This document shows, one piece after another, positions 875 to 57,121 of a stretch of 64,000 nucleotides of DNA. This DNA is from an uncultured Flavobacteriales bacterium (GTDB taxonomy: Bacteria; Bacteroidota; Bacteroidia; Flavobacteriales_D; CAJJDF01). A program made the translations under genes and the position numbers. Under the pieces are notes generated by a model. It was not told the origin of the DNA and searched no databases. It saw only the letters and a program-made list of their open reading frames with translations. Where the stretch lies: contig CAKZNB010000033.1 in assembly GCA_937129365.1 (NCBI GenBank), positions 4,754 through 68,753 of the forward strand. The letters run 5' to 3'. Every line of letters begins with the position of its first letter. Position 1 is the stretch's first letter.

Positions 875-1438
875 TTAATCATACGTTCTTAAAATAGGAG
901 TTAAACAAATTACTTCATTTAAAATACCTTTTTCATTATAATAATTAGATGCAGAAGAGAATTTCCAATCTTCTGGTTTTGCTACAAATTCTTCCTTAAC
1001 AGGATTCTCATGTATGTAGTTTATTTTGTCCCAAACAAATTTTTCGGTAAAAAGTTCAATAGCATGATTGCCTGTTTTCCAAAATTTTATTTTCTCATTG
1101 CTTTTGTACTGTTCACCTTTTTCGGCAAATAATTTAATCATCCATTCTCTTCGAGATTCTGGCTCATTTCTAATTTGAAACAATATTTGTTTTGCAACAT
1201 GTCTTTTAAAATCTCTAATAGTATCACTAAGTTTGTATGGTTCATTACAATTTACTATTAAATGTATGTGATTTGTCATTATACAATATGCAAACACATT
1301 AAGTCCTTTGTTTTGAATACAATATCGTAGTGAGTTTAAAACTGCATATTTATGATTCTTTCTTGTAAAAACATCAATCCAGTCAGCAACTGTAAGCGTA
1401 AGGTAATAACTGGCCTCTTTTTTTATGGTATGTTTTAT
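875..1438 (-). CDS. IS200/IS605-like HUH Y1 transposase (REP-associated tyrosine transposase type); start codon unclear, possibly frameshifted
   Basis: HUH motif in CIMTNHIHLIV and a C-terminal Tyr region (FSSASNYY). The frame stays open upstream of the listed GTG (1297) through IKHTIKKEASYYLTLTVADWIDVFTR, the conserved first strand. No ATG/GTG/TTG occurs in that frame. Confidence 0.75.
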   Translation of the reverse strand: MKHTIKKEASYYLTLTVADWIDVFTRKNHKYAVLNSLRYCIQNKGLNVFAYCIMTNHIHLIVNCNEPYKLSDTIRDFKRHVAKQILFQIRNEPESRREWMIKLFAEKGEQYKSNEKIKFWKTGNHAIELFTEKFVWDKINYIHENPVKEEFVAKPEDWKFSSASNYYNEKGILNEVICLTPILRTYD

Positions 1439-10407: not shown

Positions 10408-10436
10408 TTCATGAAAAAAACATTATACTTCATGAA
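10408..10436 (+). promoter_or_regulatory. Bipartite TTCATGAAAAAAA-N8-TTCATGAA motif (copy 1 of 5)
   Basis: Exact TTCATGAA at 10408 and 10429, 21 bp apart, each followed by an A-run. Lies 56 bp upstream of the likely real start at 10492. Confidence 0.5.
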
Positions 10437-10491
10437 AAAAACCGATAATTCAATAAATAATACATTAAATTTAACAATAAAACCAAAAACC

Positions 10492-11304
10492 ATGAAAAAG
10501 ACACTCATCGCACTAAGTGCATTAACATTAATTTTTTCTTCTTGTAAGGAAGAAGAGCCTTTAACTCCTAAAACTACTGATACTTCTACTGATGTAAATT
10601 TTGTATTTAAACAATATTACGATGGATATGAAGTAACTGCCGCTGATTTTGGTGCAAAGCAATTTTTAAACGCTAAAGGAACTTCACATACTATATCTAA
10701 ATTACAATACTTAATCTCTGATATTACACTTCATAAAACAGATGGAAGTGAAGTAAATCTTGGAGGCTACAATTTAATAGATGTTTCACAACCTTTATCT
10801 CGTTTTTACACACCAGCTGTTCAGATTCCAGAAGGAAGCTACTCAGGAGTTTCTGTAACCTTTGGTTTTGACGGAAATGATAATAAAGATGGAGCTTACA
10901 CAGATTTGAACGCAGCTTCATGGTCTTGGCCAATGATGATTGGTGGAGGTTACCATTTTATGAAATTCGAAGGAATGTTTCTTGATAATACATCAACCAT
11001 GAAGGGATTTGCTTACCACAATGGTACTGCTTCAAAAATGAATCCGAATGGAACAAGAACTGCTGAAGAAAATCACTTTAGAGTAAGGCTTTGGGATGCA
11101 AATGGAGGATTTCAAGTAAAATCAGGAGAGAGAATGACAATTGATATTAACATGAATATTGCAGAATGGTTCAAGAACCCTATTTTATGGGATTTGGATC
11201 AATACCACATGATGTTAATGCCAAATTATACAGCTCAAAAAATGATTAACCAAAATGGTAGAAGTGTATTGTCACTAGGAAATGTAACTTCTCCTACGAA
11301 TTAG
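10492..11304 (+). CDS. MbnP-like lipoprotein (partner of the downstream di-haem peroxidase)
   Basis: The third in-frame ATG gives MKKTLIALSALTLIFSSC (lipobox). The body resembles Bacteroidota MbnP-family proteins (KLQYLISDITLHKTDGSEV, IPEGSYSGVSVTFGFD). The next gene starts 2 nt after its stop. Confidence 0.6.
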   Translation: MKKTLIALSALTLIFSSCKEEEPLTPKTTDTSTDVNFVFKQYYDGYEVTAADFGAKQFLNAKGTSHTISKLQYLISDITLHKTDGSEVNLGGYNLIDVSQPLSRFYTPAVQIPEGSYSGVSVTFGFDGNDNKDGAYTDLNAASWSWPMMIGGGYHFMKFEGMFLDNTSTMKGFAYHNGTASKMNPNGTRTAEENHFRVRLWDANGGFQVKSGERMTIDINMNIAEWFKNPILWDLDQYHMMLMPNYTAQKMINQNGRSVLSLGNVTSPTN

Positions 11305-11305
11305 A

Positions 11306-12427
11306 ATGAAAAAAATAGCTTTTCTTATATTATTGTCTGCTAGCATTATGTTGGTATCATCCTGCCGAAAGTCAGGATGTACCAACCCTGATGCAGTAAA
11401 TTATGACCCGGGAGCTAAGGTGGATGATGGCTCTTGTATTTGTACAAGCACAAGTGGGCCAACCCCTTATCAATTGCAAATACCTGCAACCTTTTCTCGT
11501 TTTTTACCACCGCCAACTATCCCTTCGGATAATCCATTGACAGTTGAAGGAGTGGCTCTGGGTAAGAAACTGTTTTTTGATAAAAGACTTTCAGATGATT
11601 TGACACAAGCTTGTGCAAGTTGTCATTTACCTTCTCAAGCTTTTGACGATACTAATAGATTTAGTATAGGAATTGATGGGCTTGCTGGAACGAGAAATGC
11701 AATGCCATTATTTAACCATGCTTGGAATACAAATAACAAGTTTTTTTGGGATGGCAGAGCAAATGGATTAGAAGAACAAGCTTTTGGTCCGGTTGTGAAC
11801 CCTATAGAAATGCATGACACCTGGCCAAATGTGGTAAGTAAACTACAAGCAGATGCTGTGTATCCAAGTATGTTTATGTCAGCGTTTGGAACCAGTACAA
11901 TTGATTCTGTTTTGGCTTCAAAAGCTCTAGCACAATATGAGCGAACATTAATTTCTGGAAACTCTCGTTTTGATAAATACTTACTAAGGCAAATTTCTTT
12001 GACTCCAAGTGAACTCAATGGTTTTTCATTATTTATGAGTGAATCAGGTGCAGATTGTTTTCATTGTCATGGAGATGCAAATAATCCACTCTGGACAGAT
12101 AATTTATTTCATGATAACGGGCTTGATTTAACCTATACAGATTTAGGGTTAGGGGCAATAACAGGAAACCCCTCTGATAATGGTAAGTTTAAAACCCCCA
12201 GTTTAAGAAATTTAGTTTTCACACCTCCTTACATGCACGATGGAAGATTTGCTACTCTAGACGAGGTAATAGACCATTACAGTTCTGGATTAAAAGCTTC
12301 GCCTAATGTTTCTCCTTTACTAAAGAATGTAGCTACTGGAGGAAATAATCTTACACCACAAGAAAAAGCTGATTTAAAAGCATTTTTGCTAACACTTACT
12401 GATTCTAGTTTTGTGCGGGGGCATTAA
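11306..12427 (+). CDS. Di-haem cytochrome c peroxidase family protein (MbnH/MauG/CCP-like)
   Basis: Two CxxCH haem motifs: CASCH (11612-11626) and CFHCH (12056-12070). Also carries FKTPSLRN and PPYMHDG, which are typical of the CCP/MauG family. Confidence 0.85.
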   Translation: MKKIAFLILLSASIMLVSSCRKSGCTNPDAVNYDPGAKVDDGSCICTSTSGPTPYQLQIPATFSRFLPPPTIPSDNPLTVEGVALGKKLFFDKRLSDDLTQACASCHLPSQAFDDTNRFSIGIDGLAGTRNAMPLFNHAWNTNNKFFWDGRANGLEEQAFGPVVNPIEMHDTWPNVVSKLQADAVYPSMFMSAFGTSTIDSVLASKALAQYERTLISGNSRFDKYLLRQISLTPSELNGFSLFMSESGADCFHCHGDANNPLWTDNLFHDNGLDLTYTDLGLGAITGNPSDNGKFKTPSLRNLVFTPPYMHDGRFATLDEVIDHYSSGLKASPNVSPLLKNVATGGNNLTPQEKADLKAFLLTLTDSSFVRGH

Positions 12428-15063: not shown

Positions 15064-18000
15064 ATGAAATCAACTAATTATATCGTAGTAGGAGCAATTG
15101 TTCTGCTAGTATCATGCTCTATGTTCGGAAAGAAAAAAAATAAAGAAGTAACAGATTATCAGCAAAAGGAATATCCTGTGGGTGATAATTATGAGGCACT
15201 TTGGAAACAAGTTCAAGAACATGAAAGCAATGGGTTGCCAAAATCTGCATTAAAAGTTGTAGAAGAGATTTATACGCTGGCTACTAAAGAGAAAAACGTC
15301 AACCAGATTGTAAAATCATCGATGTATAAGATAAAGTACAGCCATACGCTAGAAGAGGAAAGTTATGTAAGTGCTGTGTATCAAATGGATAGTATGATTG
15401 CTACTTCTGAAGCTCCACAAAAACAAATTTTGCACAGCATACTTGCCGAAATGTACTGGAGTTACTACACCAGAAACAGATGGAAATTTAATAACAGAAC
15501 CGAAACGATAAATTTTCAAAAGCAAGACATCAGAACCTGGTCATTGGAAGATATTGTGAGAGAAACAAATACACATTATAAACTTTCTTTAACAGATGAA
15601 AATCAATTACAAGAATATTCCTTATTAAGTTTTAAAGAGCTGTTAACCAATGGGCAAAATACAGATTCACTTCGTCCTACTTTGTATGATTTTTTGGGAC
15701 ATAGAGCTTTGGCTTATTTTAGAAATACTGAGCCAGATATTACCAAACCAGCTTACTATTTTCAATTAGAAGAGGAAAAATGGTTTTTACCAGCAGAAGA
15801 GTTTGTAGAACTTCCAGTTAGCCATAAAGACACGAGTTCAACTAAGTTACAAGCTCTTAAAATATACCAGTTCCTCACAGGATTACACTTATATAAAACT
15901 AAAAACCTTGAGGCTTTAGCGGATTTAGAGTTAGATAGATTGCAGTTTATCAAAAGCTATAATTCAGTAGATAACGGAGATGAATTATACGTGAAGGGTT
16001 TAGAGGCTTTATCTACAAAAACAAAAAAAAGTGCATACTACTCTCAAGTTAGGTTTGTGTTAGCTCAATATTATTCAGGACAATCTTCTAATTACAAAAA
16101 AGAGTTGAAAAATGATGCTAAAAATGAATTATATAAAGCTTCTAAAAAGAAAGCCATTGAAATTGCTGAAGAAGCAATAAAAGCCTATCCAAATTCTTAT
16201 GGTGCAATTAATTGCCAAAATTTAATTAATACGATAAAATCTAAACGAATAGATTTTGTAAATGAAGAAGCAGTGATTCCTAATCAGTTATCAAAAGCGA
16301 AATTGTCTTTTACCAATTTAACTAAAGTATATTTCAAAGTAATAAAATTGGATTTTGATGATTACAGAGATAAGCGATTTAAAAATACAGAGGAAAGAGT
16401 AAAGTATTTCAATTCAAAAACAACTGTAAACACTTGGGAAATAAATTTACCAAATGATGGGATGTATAATCCTCATGATGTGGAGTTTGAAGTACCTAAA
16501 ATGCCAGCTGGGTATTACGCGATAGTAGCAGGGACAGATAAGAACTTCAGTTACCAAGATAATGCTATTTCTATTTCTCCATTTTGGTCTACTAACATTA
16601 GTTACATCACAAGAAGTGGAAATGGAGGCGCTGAAATCACAGTACTTGATAGAAAAACAGGAGAACCCATTGAAGGAGTAAAAGGAGAATTTTTTACAAG
16701 AAATTGGGATTATAATAAACGTAAATACATTACCAGAAAAGTAGCTACTAAATTTTCTGACAAAGAGGGGTATATCAAATTAAACAGTCCTTCAAAAAGC
16801 CAAAGCGTTACAGTTAATTTAACTAAAGATGGAGATAGGTTTGATAATGGAAATTCCATGTATCAGTATAGAAGTTATGGAAGCAAAATTAAAACTCAAA
16901 ATAGAGGAACATTATTTACGGATAGGGCTATTTACCGTCCAAACCAAAAAGTATATTTTAAAGGATTAGCTTTTTCTCAAAGAGTGAATGAAGCTAAAGT
17001 ATTGGCTGGTAAAAAAGTTATTGTTACATTTTTTGATGTAAACTGGCAAAAAGTTGATAGTAAAATACTAACTACCAATGAATTTGGAACAGTTTCAGGA
17101 GAATTTTTAACTCCACAAGGTTTGATTAATGGGAGAATGACCATTACTATGACTTTAGACAAAAAACAACTTGGGACTAAATCATTTTCTGTAGAGGAAT
17201 ACAAACGTCCGAAGTTTGAGGTAAATATTGATCCAATTGAAGGAGAATATAAATTGGATGAGAAAATAAAAGCAACTGGAATTGCCAAAGCGTTTGCGGG
17301 AAATATGATTGATGGTGCTAAAGTACAATACCGAGTTTCTCGAAGAGCTTCTTTCTCTTGGTGGTGTTGGTACTATTATGGATACAGACCAAATTCTACT
17401 GAGGTAGAAATTACAAATGGAACCACTGTAACGGATGAAAACGGAAAATTTGAAGTTGATTTTACAGCCATAGCAGATAAATCGGTTAATCAAAAATATA
17501 AACCTACTTATACTTACCAAATTGATGCAGATGTTACGGATTTGAATGGTGAAACAAGAAGCACCACTCAATATGTTTCGGTTGGGTATAATTCGTTGAT
17601 GATGAGTATTTCGGTTCCTAATGAATTGAATAGAAATAATAGCGAGAAATTTACTATTACTACAACAAATCTTAACGGACAAAAAATTGAAGCAAAAGGA
17701 AGAGTGGATGTGTATTTATTGAAAGAGAAAAAACGCCTAGAATTAAATAACAAATGGGAAAATCCAGATTTATTTTTAATGACAAAAGAGGAGCATGATA
17801 GAAAGTTTCCTTTTGAAGAGTACGGAAACAAATCTGACTATGAATTACAAGAGGAAGGAAAAGAAGAAACCTATTCGATAGGGTTTGATACCAAAGAATC
17901 GAATGAAGTAAGTTTTGATAGATTAAAAAGATGGAAAGTAGGTAGGTATCAAATCGAATTGATTTCTGAGGATAAATTCGGAAATGAAGTGAAGCAAATT

Positions 18001-21000
18001 CAAACAATGACTATCTATGACGATAAATCTAGAAAGATTCCAATGAATGAATTTTTCTGGACAAAAGGAGAAAAAGTGAGTGGTGAGCCAGGTGAAACTG
18101 CAGTAGTTCTTGTAGGCTCAAAAGCCAAGAATGTAAAGATGATGTATGAAATAGAACATCAAGGGAAGATTGTAGAAAAGAAATGGATTACACTAAACGA
18201 TGAATTAAAAAGAATTGAATTTCCTATTAAGGAAAAACACAGAGGAAATGTGTCTATTCATCTGGTTTTTGTAAAAGAAAATCATGTGTTTATGAAAAAC
18301 TACACGATTAGTGTGCCTTTCACTAATAAAGCATTAGAGGTAACTTTTGAGACTTTCAGGAATAAATTACTGCCAGGACAAAAAGAGAAATGGAAAGTAA
18401 ATATAAAGGGAAAGAAAGGAGACAAAGTACTTTCTGAAATGCTTGCAAGCATGTATGATGCTTCGTTAGATGAATTTGCTTCAAATTATTATGGATTAAA
18501 TATTTACAGTAGGTATTACGCTCAAAGAAGCTATAATTATAACCAAGGTTTCGGGTTAAACAACGCTTTTTTAATTCAAGAAGATTGGTATCCGGATTAC
18601 ATTCATGTTCCAAATAAAAGTTACTACACTCTCAATAATTTTGGGATGTACAATTACCGCTATTATGGAAATGGATTGCGTTATTCTAGAAGAAGTAAAA
18701 GCTATGCTCCAGTAATGGAATCTGTTGCAATGGAAGAAGCGGATGATGAACCAGGAAGTATAGATAAAATGGAGAAAAAGGATATTGCCAAAATGCCAGG
18801 AAGAAGTGCTGGTGATATTGCAGCTCAGGTTGGAGAAGGAAAAGTTTCTGTTGGTAATTCTAAGAATAAAGAATCAAATAACAGTTCAGGCTCAGATTTA
18901 TCCCAAGTAAAAGCTAGAAAAAACTTTAATGAAACCGCTTTTTTCTTTCCGCATTTAACGACTAATGCAAATGGAGATATTTCTTTTGAGTTTGAAATGC
19001 CAGAAGCCCTTACCAAATGGAAATTTATGGGATTGGCTCACACCAAAGACATGCGTATTGGGACCATCCAAAAAGAAATCATTACCCAAAAAGATTTGAT
19101 GGTTGTGCCTAATGTTCCTAGATTTTTAAGAGAAGGGGATAAGATTACTATTTCGAGTAAGATTAGCAATATATCTAAAAGATTATTAACTGGAGAAGCA
19201 CAATTGTTTTTATATGATGCTTTGACGAATGAGCCGATTGATGTTAAATTAAAAAATGTTTCCAAAAAAGGACTTTTAATTCATAGTGGTCATCATAATG
19301 ATGAAAAATCTATTGAACTGGAAATGAAAGCCAATAATACGATTTCTGGGGCTAAGAAAAAATTTATTGTAAAAGCTAAACAAAGCACATCCATAGAATG
19401 GCAAATTGAAATTCCATTTGGCATCCAAGCAGTGAAATACAAAATTGTAGCTCAAGCAGGAAACTTTACCGATGGAGAAGAAAATGCGTTACCAGTATTG
19501 ACAAACAGAATGTTGGTAACAGAATCCATGCCTTTGCCCGTGAAAAAAGCGGGAACGCATACTTTCAATTTTGATAAACTGAAAAACTCAGGTTCTTCAA
19601 CCAGTTTGAAACATCACAAAGTTTCGTTGGAATATACAAGTAATCCAGCTTGGTATGTGGTTCAGGCAATGCCTTACATGATGGAATATCCGTACGATTG
19701 TGCAGAGCAAACGTTTACACGATTTTATGCAAATTCGTTAGCCACTCACATCATGAATGGAAACCCAAAAATTAAAGAAATAGTTTCTGCTTGGCAAAAC
19801 GAATCGCCAGAGGCTTTCTTATCTAATTTGGAGAAAAACCAAGAATTGAAAGCGGTGATTTTGGAACAAACTCCTTGGGTGTTGGATGCTAAAAATGAAA
19901 CTGAAAACAAAAAGCGAATTGCTCAATTATTTGATTTAAATAAAATGAGTGGTCAGCTTTCCAGGGCGATGAACAAACTCCAAAAAATGCAAAAATCAAG
20001 TGGAGGTTGGCCTTGGTTTGAGGGAATGAAAGAAAGCAGATACATCACTCAGCATGTTGCCACAGGAATGGGACATTTGGATTTCTTAGGAGTAAAGAAT
20101 GTACGAGAAAATGCCAAAACATGGAGAATGGTAAAGCAAGCCATCAAATTTTTGGATAGAGAAATCAAAGAAGATTTGGAGAGAGTGAAGCGTTACGATA
20201 AAAATTACAAAGAGAACCAGCACATTAATAATTTGCAAGTGCAGTATTTGTATGCGCGTAGTTTCTTTAAGGACATTCCAATCCCTTCGGCTTCGCGAGA
20301 GGCTTACGACTATTATTTAGGTCAATCGAAAACTTATTGGTTAAAGTTTAATAACTACCAGCAAGGAATGATTGGATTGGCTAATTTCCGAATTGATAAA
20401 AACGCTGAAGTAACCAAAAAAATAATGGCTTCGCTAAAAGAACGTTCTATCGTTCATCCAGAACTAGGAATGTATTGGAAAGGAATGATGGATGGTGGAT
20501 ATTATTGGTACCAAGCTCCAATTGAAACACAAGCCTTGATGATTGAGTTATTTGATGTAGCAGGAAACGACCAAGAAACAGTAAATGAATTGAAAACTTG
20601 GCTCTTGAAACAAAAGCAAACTACCAATTGGAAAACGACCAAAGCTACTACTGAAGCGTGTTATGCTTTGTTACTTAACGGAACAGATATTTTGGCGAAT
20701 GATGACTTGGCTCAAATAAAAGTCGGAAATATCAATATTGCTTATTCTGGAAAAGAAACAGCTACAAATAGGGTAGTTAAATCAGAAAAAGGAACTGGGT
20801 ATTTTAAAACTGCTTGGAGTGGAGAAGAGGTGAAGCCTGAAATGGGAACCGTAACCGTAACCAAAAAACAAGATGGAGTTTCTTGGGGAGCTTTGTACTG
20901 GCAATACTTTGAGGATTTAGATAAAATTACTCCACACGTAACACCACTTAAGATTAAGAAAAAACTCTTTATCGAAAAGAATACAGAGAAAGGAAAAGTG

Positions 21001-21363
21001 TTGGATCCAATTACTGAAAAAAATGTCTTGAATGTAGGCGATAAAATAATCGTCCGAATAGAAATTGAGGTTGACCGAAACATGGAGTACATCCATATGA
21101 AAGATATGCGAGCTTCTGGTTTTGAACCGATTAATGTAATTTCTCGTTACAAATGGCAAGATGGTTTGGGCTATTACGAAAGCACAAAAGACGCATCTAC
21201 CGATTTCTTTATGGATTACTTACCAAGAGGAACTTATGTGTTTGAATATCCTCTGAGAGCTTCTCAAAAAGGAAATTTCTCGAATGGAATTACGAGTATT
21301 CAATGTATGTATGCTCCAGAGTTTGGAAGTCATAGTGAAGGAATAAGGGTTGAGGTTAAGTAA
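15064..21363 (+). CDS. Alpha-2-macroglobulin family lipoprotein (thioester-containing, 2099 aa)
   Basis: Lipobox LLVSCS. Thioester CxEQ motif YPYDCAEQTF (CAEQ at 19699-19710). Long run of MG-type beta-sandwich modules plus a C-terminal receptor-binding-like region. Confidence 0.85.
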   Translation: MKSTNYIVVGAIVLLVSCSMFGKKKNKEVTDYQQKEYPVGDNYEALWKQVQEHESNGLPKSALKVVEEIYTLATKEKNVNQIVKSSMYKIKYSHTLEEESYVSAVYQMDSMIATSEAPQKQILHSILAEMYWSYYTRNRWKFNNRTETINFQKQDIRTWSLEDIVRETNTHYKLSLTDENQLQEYSLLSFKELLTNGQNTDSLRPTLYDFLGHRALAYFRNTEPDITKPAYYFQLEEEKWFLPAEEFVELPVSHKDTSSTKLQALKIYQFLTGLHLYKTKNLEALADLELDRLQFIKSYNSVDNGDELYVKGLEALSTKTKKSAYYSQVRFVLAQYYSGQSSNYKKELKNDAKNELYKASKKKAIEIAEEAIKAYPNSYGAINCQNLINTIKSKRIDFVNEEAVIPNQLSKAKLSFTNLTKVYFKVIKLDFDDYRDKRFKNTEERVKYFNSKTTVNTWEINLPNDGMYNPHDVEFEVPKMPAGYYAIVAGTDKNFSYQDNAISISPFWSTNISYITRSGNGGAEITVLDRKTGEPIEGVKGEFFTRNWDYNKRKYITRKVATKFSDKEGYIKLNSPSKSQSVTVNLTKDGDRFDNGNSMYQYRSYGSKIKTQNRGTLFTDRAIYRPNQKVYFKGLAFSQRVNEAKVLAGKKVIVTFFDVNWQKVDSKILTTNEFGTVSGEFLTPQGLINGRMTITMTLDKKQLGTKSFSVEEYKRPKFEVNIDPIEGEYKLDEKIKATGIAKAFAGNMIDGAKVQYRVSRRASFSWWCWYYYGYRPNSTEVEITNGTTVTDENGKFEVDFTAIADKSVNQKYKPTYTYQIDADVTDLNGETRSTTQYVSVGYNSLMMSISVPNELNRNNSEKFTITTTNLNGQKIEAKGRVDVYLLKEKKRLELNNKWENPDLFLMTKEEHDRKFPFEEYGNKSDYELQEEGKEETYSIGFDTKESNEVSFDRLKRWKVGRYQIELISEDKFGNEVKQIQTMTIYDDKSRKIPMNEFFWTKGEKVSGEPGETAVVLVGSKAKNVKMMYEIEHQGKIVEKKWITLNDELKRIEFPIKEKHRGNVSIHLVFVKENHVFMKNYTISVPFTNKALEVTFETFRNKLLPGQKEKWKVNIKGKKGDKVLSEMLASMYDASLDEFASNYYGLNIYSRYYAQRSYNYNQGFGLNNAFLIQEDWYPDYIHVPNKSYYTLNNFGMYNYRYYGNGLRYSRRSKSYAPVMESVAMEEADDEPGSIDKMEKKDIAKMPGRSAGDIAAQVGEGKVSVGNSKNKESNNSSGSDLSQVKARKNFNETAFFFPHLTTNANGDISFEFEMPEALTKWKFMGLAHTKDMRIGTIQKEIITQKDLMVVPNVPRFLREGDKITISSKISNISKRLLTGEAQLFLYDALTNEPIDVKLKNVSKKGLLIHSGHHNDEKSIELEMKANNTISGAKKKFIVKAKQSTSIEWQIEIPFGIQAVKYKIVAQAGNFTDGEENALPVLTNRMLVTESMPLPVKKAGTHTFNFDKLKNSGSSTSLKHHKVSLEYTSNPAWYVVQAMPYMMEYPYDCAEQTFTRFYANSLATHIMNGNPKIKEIVSAWQNESPEAFLSNLEKNQELKAVILEQTPWVLDAKNETENKKRIAQLFDLNKMSGQLSRAMNKLQKMQKSSGGWPWFEGMKESRYITQHVATGMGHLDFLGVKNVRENAKTWRMVKQAIKFLDREIKEDLERVKRYDKNYKENQHINNLQVQYLYARSFFKDIPIPSASREAYDYYLGQSKTYWLKFNNYQQGMIGLANFRIDKNAEVTKKIMASLKERSIVHPELGMYWKGMMDGGYYWYQAPIETQALMIELFDVAGNDQETVNELKTWLLKQKQTTNWKTTKATTEACYALLLNGTDILANDDLAQIKVGNINIAYSGKETATNRVVKSEKGTGYFKTAWSGEEVKPEMGTVTVTKKQDGVSWGALYWQYFEDLDKITPHVTPLKIKKKLFIEKNTEKGKVLDPITEKNVLNVGDKIIVRIEIEVDRNMEYIHMKDMRASGFEPINVISRYKWQDGLGYYESTKDASTDFFMDYLPRGTYVFEYPLRASQKGNFSNGITSIQCMYAPEFGSHSEGIRVEVK

Positions 21364-37683: not shown

Positions 37684-38106
37684 TTATTCTTCGGCAGGTT
37701 TTTCAATAAGTTCTATGTTTTCATTGACTTCTCCACCTTCTTTTTCTTTTATGTATTCTTCATATAAATCTTCTCCTTTTTCTTCCCAAAATTTCCCATA
37801 ATGTTTCCATCTTGAAAACTCATTTTTATTAGAATCATCTTTACAGTCTTTGTTCTTTTTTGATGAACCACCACCACTACCACAGCCTCCAATAAAAATT
37901 TTAGAAATAATAAATAAACCAACTGCTTGCCAATAAGTTATAAATGGTAATCCAAAAATTTCGGGCATCAGCCAATTCCAAAGCCACATTAATATAAATC
38001 CAAATAATATGGCAAGTCCTGTGATGGCAATTATTCCGAAGAATACCATGGCTACTATTTCTAGTGGAGATCTTTTTCTGAGTTTGTGATTAAAAAAGTT
38101 TTTCAT
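37684..38106 (-). CDS. Hypothetical membrane protein (candidate anti-sigma partner)
   Basis: Two TM helices, a Gly/Ser linker and a charged C-terminus. Lies immediately downstream of the ECF sigma gene. Confidence 0.45.
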   Translation of the reverse strand: MKNFFNHKLRKRSPLEIVAMVFFGIIAITGLAILFGFILMWLWNWLMPEIFGLPFITYWQAVGLFIISKIFIGGCGSGGGSSKKNKDCKDDSNKNEFSRWKHYGKFWEEKGEDLYEEYIKEKEGGEVNENIELIEKPAEE

Positions 38107-38125
38107 TGTTGTGTATTTTAAAAAG

Positions 38126-38656
38126 TTATTGTTTGTTTTCTAATTGTTTATAAAGTTGTGAAATTGCTCTGTGCCTCTGCGACATTAGAGTTCCTTCGGG
38201 TATTCCAGTTTCTTCAGAGATTTCTTTGTAGGTATATCCTTCAAAATCTATAGCTATCAATATTTCTCTGTACATGGGTTTTAATTCATTCATGCAGGTT
38301 TTTAATTTTTGTTTTAGTTCATCAGAGTAGTTGTTGTCAGCATTTCCATATATTTCATCCAATACCTCTTGTAGCTTATATTCACTTTCATTTTCAATAG
38401 AATTGGTTTTTTTACCGTTTCTCATAATGTCAATAATTTTGTTTCTTATTGAGCGATATACAAATCCTGCAACATTATTTATTGGTCCATATCTATCCAC
38501 ACTTGAGAACATTTTTAAAGCTACATCCTGAATAATATCCTCGGCATCTCTATCCGCACTCTCTTTTATCCTATATTTTACATAAGATTTAAGTGACTGA
38601 TATTCCTCGCTAAAGAAATCTTGTAGTTTTTTATTGTTATCAGGTTTTTGGCTCAT
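38126..38656 (-). CDS. RNA polymerase ECF-type sigma-70 factor
   Basis: Region 2 (DAEDIIQDVALKMF, FVYRSIRNKIIDIMR) and region 4 HTH (YTYKEISEETGIPEGTLMSQRHRA). Confidence 0.85.
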   Translation of the reverse strand: MSQKPDNNKKLQDFFSEEYQSLKSYVKYRIKESADRDAEDIIQDVALKMFSSVDRYGPINNVAGFVYRSIRNKIIDIMRNGKKTNSIENESEYKLQEVLDEIYGNADNNYSDELKQKLKTCMNELKPMYREILIAIDFEGYTYKEISEETGIPEGTLMSQRHRAISQLYKQLENKQ

Positions 38657-41254: not shown

Positions 41255-41521
41255 ATGATAGAGAAATTAATAGCTTTTTTTAAAAGACCATTTTCAGATA
41301 CAAAAACCGAAACTCCTGAAGAATTTTGTCCTAATTGTTGGGGAAAACAAGAATATGATAAAGTAATTAGGGATTTATATGAAGATCATCAGATTGATGT
41401 AAATAATGGACAGGCCAATCACAATTTTATCCAAAATGTGGTGGTAAATAAGATTGAAGGAATTCGTTTAAGAAAGGGAAATACTGGAATAGAATGTCCT
41501 ACTTGCAAGGTGAATTACTAG
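41255..41521 (+). CDS. Hypothetical zinc-ribbon-like protein
   Basis: CPNCWG ... CPTCK cysteine pairs. Confidence 0.5.
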   Translation: MIEKLIAFFKRPFSDTKTETPEEFCPNCWGKQEYDKVIRDLYEDHQIDVNNGQANHNFIQNVVVNKIEGIRLRKGNTGIECPTCKVNY

Positions 41522-41523
41522 TT

Positions 41524-41552
41524 TTTATGAAAAAAAGTGGGTGTTTCATGAA
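41524..41552 (+). promoter_or_regulatory. Bipartite TTTATGAAAAAAA-N8-TTCATGAA motif (copy 2 of 5)
   Basis: Half-sites at 41524 and 41545, 21 bp apart, 42 bp upstream of the ATG at 41594. Confidence 0.5.
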
Positions 41553-41593
41553 TTATTAAATAGCATTTTCAAAGTTTTTGTTTAAACTTAGAT

Positions 41594-42490
41594 ATGAAAA
41601 AGTTACTGATAATACTCGCCCTACTTAATTTAAGTTTATTTTCTCAATCTCAATCTTACATCCCTATGGTGGAAGATAGCATGATTGTGGTGAATGGTAA
41701 TTGGGGATATGATTTTGATATTCCAATAGTTTATAAATACTTAGGTGATACTAATATAAATTCGACAACATATTTTAGAGTTTTTAAATGTTCTTCATTA
41801 GAAGACTCTAGTTATTCTTTAAATTCTAATACAAGCTATTTTGGAGCCATAAGAGAAGTAAATAAAAAAGTATATTTTCTTCATAAAGATAGTTCTCAAG
41901 AGAATAAAATTTATGATTTTAGTTTGTCAGTAAATGATTCAACAGATTTATTTTTTTCTACTATTTATACAAGTGGTTTAGTAAAAGTAAAATTGAATAG
42001 AATTGATTCTATCACTAAGTTTTATGGTAGAAATATTCGTTACCATGATATGTTTACTACAGGATTTTTTCCATCTCATATCACAGTAGAAGGTTTTGGA
42101 AATATAGATTTATGTGCGAATGAAATAGAAACAGATAATAGAGCTCGAAAACTATGCTCAATAAAAAAGAACAATTCCTCCCACAATATTCCAGCAGATT
42201 ATACAAAATGCTATTGGCAAATTAAAAATTCTTTTATCTCACTAGATGAAATTGGATTAAATGAAATTGAGGTTTTTCCTAACCCTACGGTTGGGGAGAT
42301 AACCATAAAATCAATAGACTCAAAAATAAAATCAGTTTCTGTTTTTGATGTAAACGGTAAGTTTATCGATCAGTTTTCTGTATCAGAAAATAAAAAAGTA
42401 GTTGATTTAAAAATCTATGAATCGGGTATTTACATGCTGAGAATTGTAACTAATAAAGGGATTGTAACAAAGAAAATTATAAAAAAATAA
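41594..42490 (+). CDS. Hypothetical secreted protein with a T9SS C-terminal sorting domain
   Basis: Signal peptide. The C-terminus has VFPNPTVGEITI...GIYMLRIVT. Confidence 0.7.
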   Translation: MKKLLIILALLNLSLFSQSQSYIPMVEDSMIVVNGNWGYDFDIPIVYKYLGDTNINSTTYFRVFKCSSLEDSSYSLNSNTSYFGAIREVNKKVYFLHKDSSQENKIYDFSLSVNDSTDLFFSTIYTSGLVKVKLNRIDSITKFYGRNIRYHDMFTTGFFPSHITVEGFGNIDLCANEIETDNRARKLCSIKKNNSSHNIPADYTKCYWQIKNSFISLDEIGLNEIEVFPNPTVGEITIKSIDSKIKSVSVFDVNGKFIDQFSVSENKKVVDLKIYESGIYMLRIVTNKGIVTKKIIKK

Positions 42491-52020: not shown

Positions 52021-52049
52021 TTCATGAAAAAAATAGACTAATTCATGAA
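52021..52049 (+). promoter_or_regulatory. Bipartite TTCATGAAAAAAA-N8-TTCATGAAAAAAA motif (copy 3 of 5)
   Basis: Exact half-sites at 52021 and 52042, 21 bp apart, 88 bp upstream of the ATG at 52137. Confidence 0.5.
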
Positions 52050-52136
52050 AAAAATACCGCATTTCATTCTTACACTTATAGAAATAAGTAGTTAATATGT
52101 ATATTTATATAATATTTAAACACAAAAAATAAACAA

Positions 52137-53684
52137 ATGAAAAAAATACTATCCCTACTCATTCTAGTATTGTGTATGAGTTATTCGTCAAATGCCTCAC
52201 ACATTGTAGGAGGTGATACAAGATTTGAACAAACTGGAGCAAACTCATTCGATGTTAATGTTAGAATGTTTAGATTTTGTTCAGGTATTCCTTATCCTAA
52301 CTCTATCTCAATGAGAGTTTTTGATAATGTAACTAATGCTAGTGTTTCAACGATACCAATGGCGCAAGATTCATTTGAAGTACTTTCATTTGGAGATGAA
52401 TGTTATACTCCTCCAGGTTTATGTGTTGAGGTATACTATTATTCAGGCTCAGGAAACTTAGCAAATAATCCAAACGGATATTATTGTACCTATACTACAG
52501 GCGGAAGAAATGCTGGGTTAATAAATTTAGTAAGTGGTAGTAGTACTTGGACTTGTCAAATTCCGGATCCTGCTCTTACAGGAGGTAATGATAGTCCGAA
52601 ATTCGTAGATTATCCTTCCGATGGATATTTCTGTGTAGGATTTAATAAAATTATTGACTTTTCTTGTACTGATGCTGATGGCGATAGTTTAGTCTATTCA
52701 TTAGAACAACCTTATAATACCCCTACTGGACCAGGTGGAGCAAGGCCTATTGGTCTAGCTACTTACAAAGCAGGATTTAACTTGGCAAATATTCTTGGAC
52801 CTGGAAGTTCATGTACTATTGATCCAGCAACAGGGTTTGTATCTGCTCGTCCTGCACAATTAGGAATTTATGTAGTAGCCGTAAAATGTGTGGAGTATAG
52901 AAATGGAGTAAAAATCGGTGAGGTTTTTAGAGATATTCAATATGCAGCCCTAAACTGTACTTTTAATATATTACCAACTTTTAAAAATTTCCCAACTCAA
53001 CAAGAATTTTCTTTTGATGACGAAGGTTGTTTTGATATTGTAGCAACGGATCAAAATGCAGGAGATACATTCTTTATTGAAGTAAAATCAAATGCTTATG
53101 ATTTTGGTGCAATAGCTACTTTGCCTACACCAAATACATCAGGAACTTATGACTTTAAATGGAAAGATGCTACAACTGGTGCAACTGATACAGTAAATAA
53201 TGTGCAAGTAAGAAAATTAACAGCAACAACTTTTGAAGGAGTTGGAACTGTTGGAGTTAAATTTTGTTGGGACTTAGATAATTGTGAATTATTATCAGTA
53301 GATAGTTTTTACTTAGAAGCCTTAGGTTATTCACTTGGATGTGACGGAAGTAAGGATACAGTTAGTAAAAGAATATCAATACCCGTTAAGAAAGCAACAT
53401 ACGATTATAATATACCTAACGTATTCTCTCCTAATGGAGATGGAGTTAATGACGAGTTTTACCTTAAGAAAGATGCTTTTGACCGTTGTTATGATGCACT
53501 AAACATTAGAGTGTATAACAGATGGGGACAAAAAGTATACGAATCTGACGATGCTAAATTCTCTTGGAATGGTAGAGATGATTCAGGAAATGAATTATCA
53601 GAAGGAACATATTATGTTGTAATTCAAGGTTTTTATGGAGGTAAGGAAGTAACACAAAACTATCCATTGACTTTGTTTAGATAA
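52137..53684 (+). CDS. T9SS type-B sorting-domain protein, tandem paralogue 1
   Basis: Signal peptide, then SHIVGGD. Conserved FGDECYTPPGLCV, PDPALTGGN, DADGDSLVY and EYRNGVKIGE. The C-terminus has PNVFSPNGDGVNDEF...YNRWGQKVYES...WNGRDDSGNELSEGTYY. Confidence 0.85.
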   Translation: MKKILSLLILVLCMSYSSNASHIVGGDTRFEQTGANSFDVNVRMFRFCSGIPYPNSISMRVFDNVTNASVSTIPMAQDSFEVLSFGDECYTPPGLCVEVYYYSGSGNLANNPNGYYCTYTTGGRNAGLINLVSGSSTWTCQIPDPALTGGNDSPKFVDYPSDGYFCVGFNKIIDFSCTDADGDSLVYSLEQPYNTPTGPGGARPIGLATYKAGFNLANILGPGSSCTIDPATGFVSARPAQLGIYVVAVKCVEYRNGVKIGEVFRDIQYAALNCTFNILPTFKNFPTQQEFSFDDEGCFDIVATDQNAGDTFFIEVKSNAYDFGAIATLPTPNTSGTYDFKWKDATTGATDTVNNVQVRKLTATTFEGVGTVGVKFCWDLDNCELLSVDSFYLEALGYSLGCDGSKDTVSKRISIPVKKATYDYNIPNVFSPNGDGVNDEFYLKKDAFDRCYDALNIRVYNRWGQKVYESDDAKFSWNGRDDSGNELSEGTYYVVIQGFYGGKEVTQNYPLTLFR

Positions 53685-53705
53685 ACCTAAAATAAACTAA
53701 TATTG

Positions 53706-53741
53706 AAAAAACTCTCATTTGTTTAAATGAGAGTTTTTTTT
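53706..53741 (+). terminator. Rho-independent terminator of paralogue 1
   Basis: ACTCTCATTT ... AAATGAGAGT stem followed by T8. Confidence 0.7.
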
Positions 53742-53743
53742 AT

Positions 53744-53772
53744 TTCATGAAAAAAAATACTAGTTTCATGAA
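53744..53772 (+). promoter_or_regulatory. Bipartite TTCATGAAAAAAAA-N-TTCATGAA motif (copy 4 of 5)
   Basis: Exact half-sites at 53744 and 53765, 21 bp apart, 68 bp upstream of the ATG at 53840. Confidence 0.5.
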
Positions 53773-53839
53773 GTCAATAAAAATTTATACTTTTATAATT
53801 GTACTTTAGCATTATAATAAACCCATAATCATAACAATC

Positions 53840-55375
53840 ATGAAAAAAATACTTTTAATACTTATAGTCCTTGCAGGATTTTCATTTAATGCAAAATCTT
53901 CGCATGCAGTTGGTGGAGACATCCACTTTCAACAAACTGGACCAAATTCTTATATAGTTACAATGCGTTTATTTAGGTATTGTACAGGTGCAGGTTTAGG
54001 GGCAACATACACAATTAGATTAGCAGACCAAGTAACTTGTGCGTCAGCAGCTAATGTAACAGTAAATAGAACAGGTCAAATAAATATTCCTTTTGGTGAT
54101 GAATGTTATACTCCACCAGGATTATGTGTTCAAGAACATACGTACAGAGGAACAATAGCTTCCTTGCCAAATAATCCAAATGGATATAAAGCCACTTGGT
54201 CATTATGTTGTAGAAATGCAATTGACAATATGGTTTCAAGTAGCTTAGGACTATATACAAACCTACCAGATCCTGCTTTAACTGGAGGGAATAGCACACC
54301 AAAATTTGTTGATTACCCAAGAGATGGTTATTTTTGTATCAATGAATTAAAATGTATTGATTTTTCTGCTTCAGATACAAATGGTGATAGTTTGGTTTAT
54401 ACATTAGTAAATCCAATTAATACTTTCACAGGATGTACACCAAATTTATTAGGATTCCAGCCAAGTTTTAATATGGCAAATATATTAGGGCCAGGAAGTT
54501 CATGTACAATTGATTCAAGAACTGGATGTGTATGGGCAAGACCTGCACAATTAGGTATTTATGTGATATCTGTAAGGATAGATGAATACCGAAATGGAGT
54601 TAAAATAGGGGAGACAGTAAGAGATATTCAATATTCAGCACTTAATTGTAATACCAATGAGTTGCCAGATTATTATAACTTTAAGGATATTCAAGTATTA
54701 CAATTTGATAAAGATGGGTGTTTTGATGTAGCAGCTTTTGATAGAGATCCAGAAGATACATTCTTTATTGATGTAGTATCAAATGCATTTGATTTTGGAG
54801 CAATAGCAACTTTGCCTCCTGCAAATACCTCTGGTACTTATAATTTCTCTTGGACGAATTCAATAACAGGAGGAACTGATACTATTAACAATGTGAACAT
54901 GAAAAAACTTACTGCAACTAAATTTGAAGGTGTAGGAAGAATTGGTGTACGTTTTTGTTGGACACCAGACCAATGTGATATTTTAGCTATCGATACTTTT
55001 GACCTTACTATGTATGGGTACTCCTTAGGGTGTGATGGTTCAGTTGATTCTATTGAAAACAATACGAAAATTGTAATTGATAAGCCACAGAGTAGTTATG
55101 TTGTACCAAACGTATTCTCACCAAATGAGGATGGAATTAATGATGAGTACAAATTAGAGCAAGGAGCTTTTGATAGATGTTTGGATAATTTAACTGTAAA
55201 AATTTATAACAGATGGGGGCAGAAGGTATTTGAATCTGATAATGCTCAATTCAAATGGAATGGTAGAGACGATAGTGGTAATGAACTTTCAGAAGGAACC
55301 TATTTTGTAATTCTACAGGGATTCTATGGAGGAAAAGAAGTGACTGAAAACTTCCCAGTTACGTTGTTTAGATAA
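53840..55375 (+). CDS. T9SS type-B sorting-domain protein, tandem paralogue 2
   Basis: Same architecture as paralogue 1 (SHAVGGD, FGDECYTPPGLCV, type-B CTD). Confidence 0.85.
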   Translation: MKKILLILIVLAGFSFNAKSSHAVGGDIHFQQTGPNSYIVTMRLFRYCTGAGLGATYTIRLADQVTCASAANVTVNRTGQINIPFGDECYTPPGLCVQEHTYRGTIASLPNNPNGYKATWSLCCRNAIDNMVSSSLGLYTNLPDPALTGGNSTPKFVDYPRDGYFCINELKCIDFSASDTNGDSLVYTLVNPINTFTGCTPNLLGFQPSFNMANILGPGSSCTIDSRTGCVWARPAQLGIYVISVRIDEYRNGVKIGETVRDIQYSALNCNTNELPDYYNFKDIQVLQFDKDGCFDVAAFDRDPEDTFFIDVVSNAFDFGAIATLPPANTSGTYNFSWTNSITGGTDTINNVNMKKLTATKFEGVGRIGVRFCWTPDQCDILAIDTFDLTMYGYSLGCDGSVDSIENNTKIVIDKPQSSYVVPNVFSPNEDGINDEYKLEQGAFDRCLDNLTVKIYNRWGQKVFESDNAQFKWNGRDDSGNELSEGTYFVILQGFYGGKEVTENFPVTLFR

Positions 55376-55396
55376 CATAAATTTCAATTAACTTTT

Positions 55397-55434
55397 AAAA
55401 ATCTCTCTTGATTATTCAGGAGAGATTTTTTTTT
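55397..55434 (+). terminator. Rho-independent terminator of paralogue 2
   Basis: ATCTCTC ... GAGAGAT stem followed by T9. Confidence 0.65.
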
Positions 55435-55443
55435 GAAAAGTAC

Positions 55444-55472
55444 TTTATGAAAAAAATAAACCCATTCATGAA
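55444..55472 (+). promoter_or_regulatory. Bipartite TTTATGAAAAAAA-N8-TTCATGAAAA motif (copy 5 of 5)
   Basis: Half-sites at 55444 and 55465, 21 bp apart, 108 bp upstream of the ATG at 55580. Confidence 0.5.
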
Positions 55473-55579
55473 AATCAATTTCCCAATAATAAAAAAAACA
55501 TAACAGCCCGTAAACTCTCTCGATATTAGTTAGTTATAAGGATTAGTTTAGTACTGTATTAATCTAAAAACTAATTATT

Positions 55580-57121
55580 ATGAAAAACTTTTTTTTAGTA
55601 TGCTTAATCCTAATAGGATTTTCATACACAGCAAAATCCTCTCACGCAGTAGGAGGAGATATACAATTTATGCAAACAGGCTCTAACTCTTACGATGTTA
55701 GAATGACCTTATTCAGGTTTTGTTCAGGAATAAATTACAGCAATTCTTATTCAATAAGATTAGCCAATCAATCAGGTTGCACATTTGCCCAAAATGTCTC
55801 TGTTAATTTGGATTCTATTTTTAATATTCCATTTGGAGATGAATGTTACACTCCGCCAGGACTTTGTGTTCAGCAGTACGAATATTCTGGTACAATTACT
55901 TCATTGCCAAATAACCCTGCCGGATATATAGGAACAATATCAATCAGTGCAAGAAACTCAGGACTAATAAATATTGGTTCCTCTAGCATGGGATTGTATA
56001 CAAAAATACCAGATCCAGCTTTAGCAGGTGGCAATAGTACTCCCCGTTTTGTTGACTATCCAAGAGATGGCTATTTTTGTGTTAACAATGAAAAATGCAT
56101 TGATTTTTCAGCAACAGATCCCGATGGCGATAGTTTGGTTTATAACCTCGTTAATCCAATAGCTTCTTTCACAGCTAGCTGTGGTTATAATTACAGTCCA
56201 TGGAATCCAACATTTAATTTAGCTAATTATTTAGGATCAGGAAGTAGATGTATTATAGACTCAAAAACGGGATGTGTTATGGCGCTTCCAAGAAGGTTAG
56301 GGAAATATGTTATTTCCGTAAGAGTGGATGAATATAGAAATGGAGTTAAAATAGGCGAAACTGTAAGAGATTTACAATATGAAGCACTGAATTGCAGCTT
56401 TAATACTCTTCCAGAATTTTATGAAACGGAAGAAGTTAAAACTCTAAAATTTGATCAAAATGGATGTTTTGATTTGGCAGCATTTGATAATAATACAGGC
56501 GACACTTTTTATATTGATGTAATCTCTGATGCATTTAATTATGGAGCCATAGCTACTTTGCCAAATAAAAATGCTAATAGCAAATATGATTTTAGTTGGA
56601 AAAATGCAACAACTGGAACAACTCAAACTATAACAGATGTAGAAGTTAAGAAATTGACAGCTACTAAATTTGAAGGTGTAGGGAAAGTAGGGATTAGATT
56701 TTGTTGGACTCCAGACCAATGCGAAATATTAGCAACAGATACTTTTAATTTAACTATGCATGGCTATTCATTAGGGTGCGATGGATCAGTTGATTCAGTG
56801 GAAAAAGTTACCAAAATAGTAATTGATAAACCACAAAGTAGTTATTTAGTTCCTAATGTTTTTTCGCCTAATGAAGATGGAATAAATGACATATACAGAC
56901 TTGAGCAAGGTGCATTTGATAGATGTTTAGATAATTTAACTGTAAAAATATATAACAGATGGGGACAACAAGTATTTGAATCTGATGATGCTCAATTCAA
57001 ATGGAATGGTAGAGATGAAAGTGGAGATGAATTATCTGAAGGAACCTATTTTGTAATTCTACAGGGATTCTATGGAGGAAAAGAAGTGACTGAAAACTTC
57101 CCAGTGACTCTGTTTAGATAG
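55580..57121 (+). CDS. T9SS type-B sorting-domain protein, tandem paralogue 3
   Basis: Same architecture as the other two. The 3' part is nearly identical in DNA to paralogue 2. Confidence 0.85.
   Translation: MKNFFLVCLILIGFSYTAKSSHAVGGDIQFMQTGSNSYDVRMTLFRFCSGINYSNSYSIRLANQSGCTFAQNVSVNLDSIFNIPFGDECYTPPGLCVQQYEYSGTITSLPNNPAGYIGTISISARNSGLINIGSSSMGLYTKIPDPALAGGNSTPRFVDYPRDGYFCVNNEKCIDFSATDPDGDSLVYNLVNPIASFTASCGYNYSPWNPTFNLANYLGSGSRCIIDSKTGCVMALPRRLGKYVISVRVDEYRNGVKIGETVRDLQYEALNCSFNTLPEFYETEEVKTLKFDQNGCFDLAAFDNNTGDTFYIDVISDAFNYGAIATLPNKNANSKYDFSWKNATTGTTQTITDVEVKKLTATKFEGVGKVGIRFCWTPDQCEILATDTFNLTMHGYSLGCDGSVDSVEKVTKIVIDKPQSSYLVPNVFSPNEDGINDIYRLEQGAFDRCLDNLTVKIYNRWGQQVFESDDAQFKWNGRDESGDELSEGTYFVILQGFYGGKEVTENFPVTLFR

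Follow-up and report, generated by a model that had tools for sequence, protein, structure and literature searches.

A 21-bp-phased direct-repeat box in front of exported-protein genes of a Flavobacteriales bacterium: a candidate LytTR activator site

The window described here is a 64-kb stretch of DNA (64,000 nucleotides of contig CAKZNB010000033.1) from an uncultured Flavobacteriales bacterium. It contains five copies of a short paired repeat, TTYATGAAAAAAA-N8-TTCATGAA, each of which points to a gene downstream on the plus strand (Table 1). Four of these genes code for proteins that are cargo for a type IX secretion system (T9SS) and one codes for a lipoprotein, so that all five copies precede genes for exported proteins, as the first-pass annotation of this DNA had claimed. 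Three of the cargo genes are tandem CHU_C paralogues. Since their products are only 55% identical, these genes are old duplicates, and their upstream regions are alike in the repeat units only.

A search of the window with the pattern TTYATGAA-N13-TTCATGAA returned eight matches, which correspond to the five sites with three symmetric ones counted on both strands. The same pattern found no match in 100 dinucleotide-preserving shuffles. The octamer TTCATGAA by itself occurs 10 times in the window compared to 3.9 expected occurrences, and unpaired copies are limited to 23584 (within alaS) and 62960. The first-pass annotation had already placed the five copies at these coordinates with identical spacing, had judged phased pairs unlikely to arise by chance and had named the same two unpaired copies; the scan confirms each of these points. 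The start-to-start register is exactly 21 bp in five of five window sites and in relatives. The distal unit shows conservation across 13 nt (TTYATGAAAAAAA) in each of the five sites, and the N8 spacers and the flanks differ from site to site. A position-weight matrix made from the window sites and related instances gives the five sites 29–35 bits, scores that are somewhat flattering because the matrix was partly trained on these sites. The next independent matches in the window reach at most 17 bits, and the shuffle maximum is 16.3 bits. Despite the training overlap, the gap between the five sites and background is clear.

Two of the copies are followed by weak third units at 10450 (TTCAATAA) and 52063 (TTCATTCT). 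Column counts from 28 instances that were not ascertained by the pattern yield the unit consensus TTYATGAAA for the distal and TTCRTGAAR for the proximal position. An initial proposal had been that two palindromes are occupied by a dimer of dimers. Direct repeats fit better, given the existence of three-unit arrays, the asymmetric A-run flanks and the different variation of distal and proximal units. The element is best understood as a series of direct repeats of about 9 bp (TTCATGAAA), two and in some cases three of them, with a register of 21 bp, and not as a palindrome pair.

Homologues of the CHU_C paralogues (54–79% protein identity) led us to syntenic loci in relatives, in which one to three paralogues lie between murB and argS. 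Most paralogue promoters at these loci keep two units exactly 21 bp apart, and the other intergenic DNA is unalignable with the window. The distal unit varies between TTYATGAA, TTCATAAA, TTAATGAA and TTTATGTA, and the proximal unit between TTCATGAA, TTGATGAA, TTGGTGAA and TTCGTGAA. The A-run that had been described behind the first palindrome is indeed common behind the distal unit, but it is not invariant in relatives. L049, L014 and the Chitinophaga locus L035 contain arrays with a third unit in the same register. Because units and spacing are kept while the surrounding intergenic DNA is unalignable, we are dealing with a selected element and not with a duplicated block. The original view that selection acts on the repeats and leaves spacer and flanks free has therefore stood, and the competing reading as a mobile block with conserved spacers fails. 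Between L043 and L051 the number of CHU_C paralogues corresponding to window positions 52137-57121 ranges from one to three; the third copy in L043 and L044 is shortened or lacks a normal start.

Across 185,579 species genomes the strict pattern detects 42 loci, none of them from the source genome and about 14 from Flavobacteriales or other Bacteroidota. In 13 of 15 Bacteroidota loci examined, the match lies 24–150 nt 5' of a gene whose product begins with a signal peptide, and 9 of 10 such downstream genes tested encode a T9SS C-terminal domain. In three classes of Bacteroidota the box also precedes unrelated genes (among them MbnP, FG-GAP, LamG and lipocalin-like lipoproteins). Taken as sequence comparisons, these data support a putative cis-regulatory protein-binding site with selection on the repeats and on the 21-bp register.

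The position of the box relative to the promoter is equally regular. We searched 27 promoters for TAnnTTTG with at most one mismatch between the proximal unit and the start codon, and defined the offset as the distance from the start of the proximal unit to the start of this -7 box. A -7-like box is found at an offset of 36–38 in 13 of the 27 promoters, at 57–59 (37+21) in seven and at 79 (37+42) in two. Counted together, 22 of the 27 promoters have a phased box (36–38, 57–59 or 78–80), whereas the null mean is 2.2; in 5000 shuffles this number was never reached. A conservative set of independent promoters gave 15 of 19 against 1.7 expected, a value that likewise no shuffle of 5000 reached. 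The predicted -7 box ends 16–33 nt 5' of the ATG. A TTG at -33 is nearly always missing; about one of the 13 offset-37 promoters has it. Since the -7 box of Flavobacterium psychrophilum spans -12 to -5 (PMC9723704), the units would be centred near -45 and -66, or one to two 21-bp steps farther upstream on the same helix face, and the 9-bp proximal repeat would end about 5–8 bp before the -33 position. The early suggestion that the sites occupy one face of the helix is supported. Transcription starts predicted from the -7 boxes put the element 5' of the transcript, and this predicted layout is that of an activator-dependent promoter.

Table 1. Boxes, promoter elements, terminators and target genes in the window. 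Scores in bits are from the position-weight matrix; start positions of distal/proximal units are given for each box.
Feature	Coordinates	Strand	Details
Box 1	10408..10437	+	units at 10408/10429; distal TTCATGAAAAAAA 10408-10420, spacer, proximal TTCATGAAA 10429-10437; 31.8 bits
Predicted -7 box of Box 1	10466..10473	+	TAAATTTA; offset 37; 18 nt before ATG 10492
MbnP-family lipoprotein gene, Box 1 target	10492-11304	+	signal peptide ends in Cys
MbnH-like di-haem cytochrome c peroxidase gene, second in Box 1 operon	11306-12427	+	
Box 2	41524..41553	+	units at 41524/41545; TTTATGAAAAAAA-GTGGGTGT-TTCATGAAT; 28.9 bits; begins 2 nt past stop of an 88-aa CxxC open reading frame
Weak -7 candidate of Box 2	41583-41590	+	TAAACTTA; offset 38
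Por_Secre_tail T9SS cargo gene, Box 2 target	41594..42490	+	298 aa
Box 3	52021..52070	+	units at 52021/52042; TTCATGAAAAAAA-TAGACTAA-TTCATGAAA plus degenerate third unit TTCATTCT at 52063; 35.0 bits
Predicted -7 box of Box 3	52100..52107	+	TATATTTA; offset 58 (37+21), i.e., 37 bp after third unit
CHU_C (type-B T9SS C-terminal domain) paralogue 1, Box 3 target	52137..53684	+	515 aa
Intrinsic terminator of paralogue 1	53705..53740	+	directly abuts Box 4
Box 4	53744..53773	+	units at 53744/53765; TTCATGAAAAAAA-ATACTAGT-TTCATGAAG; 31.3 bits
Predicted -7 box of Box 4	53802..53809	+	TACTTTAG; offset 37; 30 nt before ATG
CHU_C paralogue 2, Box 4 target	53840..55375	+	511 aa
Terminator-like hairpin after paralogue 2	55401..55434	+	ATCTCTC...GAGAGAT then T-run; read by eye; unflagged by terminator scanner (loop >8 nt)
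Box 5	55444..55473	+	units at 55444/55465; TTTATGAAAAAAA-TAAACCCA-TTCATGAAA; 33.7 bits
Predicted -7 box of Box 5	55544..55551	+	TAGTTTAG; offset 79 (37+42); 28 nt before ATG
CHU_C paralogue 3, Box 5 target	55580..57121	+	513 aa

This architecture resembles that of sites bound by LytTR-type response regulators. The ComE site consists of two 9-bp direct repeats with a 12-bp linker (PMC4005675). In LytTR regulatory systems a gap of 4–11 bp separates the repeats from the -35 region downstream of them; the family conserves how long the repeats are, how they are spaced and where they lie, but conserves their sequence poorly (PMC6193735). The boxes described here comprise at least two imperfect direct repeats of about 9 bp with a 12-bp spacer and hence a 21-bp register, in agreement with the 11–13 bp spacers of LytTR sites (reference values from PMC4005675 and PMC6193735), and the predicted -7 phasing places them in the 4–11 bp interval upstream of -35. 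The further habit of LytTR sites to lie at or beside the operon of their own regulator is found in other Bacteroidota. A Pfam scan of 44 open reading frames (ORFs) that neighbour motif-bearing Bacteroidota genes identified five regulators with REC and LytTR domains and five PF06580 histidine kinases. In the Flavobacterium locus L006 the order is box, cargo, regulator, kinase; in the Kordia loci L027, L029 and L036 it is box, FG-GAP cargo, beta-propeller kinase, regulator. The related locus L042 has box and cargo, followed by a 595-aa ORF outside the Pfam scan. L026 contains a kinase-regulator pair beside two LamG cargo genes with boxes, and in the Chitinophaga locus a cargo gene and a LytTR regulator gene are transcribed divergently, with the three-unit box between them. 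As a control, the families common to at least two of 76 neighbours of unrelated match classes do not include LytTR.

The linkage was also examined in the opposite direction. With protein similarity as the sole criterion, six homologues of the L006 regulator were retrieved, and each 16–20 kb locus was scanned with the matrix. Phased repeats lie beside the two-component system in five of these six loci (L172–L175 and L177; they are not clear in L176), with a -7 box at an offset of 37–38 in each of the five. In L172–L175, which derive from F. pectinovorum, F. magnum, Pedobacter glucosidilyticus (L174) and one further Flavobacterium, the best matrix match of the entire locus adjoins the two-component system. 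This best box is 5' of an adjacent T9SS cargo gene in L172, L173 and L175, and 5' of two lipoprotein genes in Pedobacter; in L177 two cargo genes are preceded by phased boxes of three units. The units drift with regulator divergence (TTCGTGAA, TTCACAAA, TTCGTAAA). In L174 (12735-14053) the two paralogous lipoprotein genes (160–163 aa) lie directly 3' of the regulator-kinase pair. A separate three-unit box stands before each of them, together with a -7 box at an offset of 37, which makes this locus a compact and probably tractable model of the circuit.

On these grounds we consider it probable that each copy in the window is an upstream activating site for a REC-LytTR response regulator partnered with a PF06580-type kinase. 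The site would consist of two to three direct repeats of about 9 bp (TTCATGAAA), separated by 12-bp spacers, with the distal repeat extended by an A-tract. The repeat centres would lie near -66 and -45 of a sigma-A promoter in which a -7 box (TAnnTTTG) is present and no -33 TTG can be recognised. The phosphorylated regulator, presumably encoded in the source genome outside the window, would bind the repeats in tandem on a single helix face and recruit RNA polymerase. We infer activation and not repression from this arrangement. A signal sensed by the kinase would thereby switch on the genes for T9SS cargo and lipoproteins.

Several observations weigh against this assignment. Neither the 64-kb window nor the syntenic 20-kb loci of close relatives contain a LytTR or PF06580 gene; the only regulator gene found in the window codes for an extracytoplasmic function (ECF) sigma factor (38126-38656, minus strand). 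A LytTR regulator in the source genome is therefore an extrapolation from other genera, and the LytTR regulators that are linked to boxes are only 30–42% identical to one another. The repeat TTCATGAAA is unlike the ACCNCTTAN-type LytTR repeats of firmicutes tabulated in PMC6193735, although this mismatch is a weak criterion because the same source reports poor sequence conservation across the family. A palindromic core such as that of the unit is not usual in LytTR sites, and in metagenomes ribbon-helix-helix (RHH) genes are served by this half-site at the same spacing. Not every expected promoter fits. Three other T9SS genes in the window (7270, 24076 and 47009 on the minus strand) have no box, and although most orthologous promoters keep the paired units, the promoter of paralogue 1 in L050/L051 is without them. 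Box 2 lacks a convincing -7 box where the offset would call for one; its weak candidate would imply a near-leaderless mRNA, which is uncertain.

The half-site shared with RHH genes raises the question as to whether a protein of another family reads the box, either an AraC/XylS-type activator or a tetrameric RHH protein with one dimer on each TTCATGAA palindrome. AraC/XylS direct-repeat half-sites also recur every 21 bp, and at araI1-I2 and the XylS site at Pm the proximal site lies next to or overlaps -35 and supports activation. Their half-sites span about 15–17 bp with two sub-boxes, whereas the conserved proximal part of the box has 8–9 bp and no AraC-type gene is linked to it. A different family would be in line with the 8-bp palindrome of the unit core, with the window's lack of a LytTR gene and with the occurrence, among the metagenome matches listed, of TTCATGAA-N13-TTCATGAA in front of RHH-like genes of about 90 aa. 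These probable FitAB-like antitoxin operators (L059–L161) share half-site and 21-bp spacing with the window boxes, but they are fully symmetric (TTCATGAAAAA-N7-TTTTTCATGAA, an A-run and then a T-run), abut the RHH gene itself at 29–42 nt and occur in hosts of 32–65% GC. In the window the flanks of the sites are asymmetric and the genes behind them code for exported proteins, and three-unit arrays exist. The regulator that recurs among the 44 neighbours is REC-LytTR together with the PF06580 kinase; neither AraC-type (HTH_18) nor RHH proteins are among the 25 families listed for these neighbours, a list that covers every family common to at least two of them. Finally, the box is present in five of six loci that were fetched by LytTR-regulator homology. 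We regard recognition by one of these other families as unlikely.

An element that acts at the RNA level is less probable still. Two self-complementary octamers in a 5' leader could form an 8-bp hairpin (predicted at -3.7 to -8.5 kcal/mol, z-scores -1.6 to -5.6), and the C-to-T variant of the distal unit preserves a G-U pair. Such a hairpin is, however, the trivial outcome of repeating a palindrome. Of 46 changed pairs in 28 pattern-independent instances, one is compensatory, 23 are G-U and 22 are broken. Three-unit arrays do not suit a hairpin, the predicted -7 box at least 37 bp downstream puts the element ahead of the transcript, and two copies stand immediately behind terminators; an Rfam scan of the window gave no family match. 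The hairpin was rejected for its non-compensatory variants, the three-unit arrays and its place upstream of the predicted transcription start. The first-pass annotation had offered upstream ORFs or decoy start codons as an alternative function, and the in-frame ATGs of the ATGAAA units do stand seven codons apart and look like real MKK starts. This idea was dropped, since the peptides are unconserved, the ORF at 52024 stops after five codons (MKKID*) and the motif lies upstream of the predicted start of transcription. Slightly more doubtful again is a reading of the units as -35 and -10 elements of an alternative, ECF-type sigma promoter. An ECF sigma gene is present in the window, 21 bp from start to start is near the -35/-10 geometry, and the distance to the ATG varies as that of a 5' untranslated region would. 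Sigma regions 4 and 2 recognise sequences that differ from each other, but the two elements here are identical; arrays with three units exist, a canonical sigma-A -7 box follows at fixed phase, and the linkage is to LytTR systems and not to sigma/anti-sigma pairs. The identity of the elements and the phased sigma-A box led us to discard this promoter model. Hardly credible, lastly, is an origin as part of a mobile or recently duplicated block or by chance in AT-rich DNA. Three of the five copies do precede tandem paralogues, but these are 55% identical, with intergenic regions alike in units only; unrelated genes in three classes of Bacteroidota carry the box, and no shuffle reproduced it. The block was rejected on account of its unalignable spacers and flanks.

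A LytTR activator site would have several known relatives. In E. coli, BtsS/BtsR (YehU/YehT) combines a PF06580-type kinase with a REC-LytTR regulator and direct repeats in target promoters. The targets of this system and of YpdA/YpdB are single transporter genes, and these systems differ from the one proposed here by their repeats and by the absence of a link to secretion cargo. YpdA/YpdB is likewise a pair of these two protein types, and YpdB is reported to bind direct repeats in the promoters of its targets (PMC4847170). The Gram-positive LytTR boxes (ComE, AgrA, BlpR, PlnC/D and the HdrR/BrsR systems) are alike in their direct repeats of about 9 bp, the 12-bp gap and the activator position just upstream of -35 (PMC4005675, PMC6193735). 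The operon of such a system often carries its own box (PMC4005675, PMC6193735), and the Kordia and Flavobacterium cassettes of box, cargo, histidine kinase and response regulator have the same layout. Several features set the boxes here apart from the Gram-positive examples. The repeat sequence is TTCATGAAA, its core is palindromic and an A-tract follows the distal unit; the promoter is of the Bacteroidota -33/-7 type, and three-unit arrays are common. The sensor parts of the kinases, which are PF06580 proteins and not HPK10 peptide receptors, are of the TPR or beta-propeller/Y_Y_Y kind, and the first gene of the cassette encodes a T9SS cargo protein or lipoprotein instead of a peptide pheromone. 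The PorXY-SigP route is also a two-component control of T9SS-related expression in Bacteroidota; this cascade is reported to address the secretion-machinery genes via an ECF sigma factor and a PglZ-domain regulator (PMC4800418, PMC8050853). The window-type box, in comparison, stands before genes for cargo and lipoproteins, and the regulators linked to it are of the LytTR type.

The same pattern captures other elements in metagenomes. Among the matches listed, most belong to unrelated classes: RHH operators, Prevotella arrays, tandem arrays and coding matches. RHH-like genes of about 90 aa (MANLQIKGIDD.LY...NRS.SQQV) are found at at least 12 loci (L059, L060, L065, L068, L072, L087, L097, L108, L128, L136, L157 and L161), and the symmetric operator in front of them probably serves antitoxin-type autorepression. 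A Prevotella-type element, again among the matches listed, consists of GAATTATT followed by three to four TTCATGAAAAAAATATTTCTT units at 21–22 bp and occurs in many places in Prevotella contigs from rumen and gut (L005, L020, L028, L054, L069, L092, L094, L107, L124, L127, L130, L153–L155, L160, L162, L165, L168 and L169); LytTR is not among the families common to at least two of the 76 ORFs that surround such loci. In L019 (10 units), L117, L141, L126 and L139 there are long tandem arrays. Their units measure 21 bp or, in alternation, 42 bp and have TTCATGAAAAA as their core, the spacers are conserved in part, and the arrays resemble iterons or satellites.

Some observations concern the genes behind the boxes. 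The motif ATG at 10411 is in frame with the MbnP gene, and a mechanical ORF call wrongly begins there (10411-10491 extra). The start of a gene in L010 (3019-4677; public protein P0038, 546 aa) is likewise called at the ATG of a motif unit. In these cases the longest-ORF call adds 27–31 spurious residues before the true MKK signal peptide. When window positions 41255-42490 are compared with the syntenic loci L049, L050 and L051, the gene at 41594-42490 and its box are absent; in these loci a conserved ORF of 88–89 aa (CxxC...CxxC) is directly followed by surE. Box 2 and its cargo gene therefore seem, on this comparison, to have been gained or lost as a unit. A sequence search of the PDB with paralogue 1 produced a marginal match to a YjgF protein as its sole result, which we judged spurious. 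Elsewhere in the window, positions 15064-21363 encode a 2099-aa bacterial alpha-2-macroglobulin-like protein (MG2, A2M and bMG10 domains), and a 140-aa ORF at 875-1297 (minus strand), whose match to the IS200-like Y1 transposase family is weak and partial, is probably a remnant. The ECF sigma gene is followed by another 140-aa ORF without family match (region 37684-38656, minus strand), which may code for an anti-sigma factor. Two further genes upstream are SnoaL-like and NAD(P)H-binding, respectively, and no link of these to the boxes was seen.

The literature searched holds no description of this box, its conservation, its -7 phase or its association with T9SS cargo and lipoprotein genes, and the transcriptome paper on F. 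psychrophilum reports sigma motifs only (PMC9723704); a preprint of 2026 about zorbing in F. johnsoniae proved to have no bearing on the box. The first-pass annotation had called the element undescribed. This holds for its sequence but not for its repeat length, spacer and position, which match LytTR sites. The architecture of the site is thus known already, and the version of the box common to three Bacteroidota classes appears to be undescribed. A broader extension of the LytTR reading is rather unlikely in our estimation. The box might be a phylum-wide module of Bacteroidota in which a secreted cargo protein or lipoprotein comes first in a self-activating cassette of box, cargo, kinase and regulator, with the exported product forming part of the signal or sensor for the TPR or beta-propeller domain of the kinase. 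Several paralogous LytTR regulators would then read one box (TTCATGAAA-N12-TTCATGAAA), and scattered cargo genes, including the five in the window, would form a common secretome regulon. If true, this would be a protein-based analogue of Gram-positive peptide autoinduction.

LytTR two-component systems are numerous in Bacteroidota, and the literature found gives no binding site or regulon for any of them; the regulation of T9SS cargo genes, unlike that of the secretion machinery, is also poorly covered. A scannable box with a fixed -7 position would permit the prediction of LytTR regulons across Flavobacteriia, Chitinophagia and Sphingobacteriia. For annotation, the ATG in each unit is a source of spurious N-terminal extensions in gene calls. 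The box could also serve the design of inducible promoters in organisms in which standard genetic tools do poorly. It would also connect orphan sensor kinases to the surface and secreted proteins under their control.

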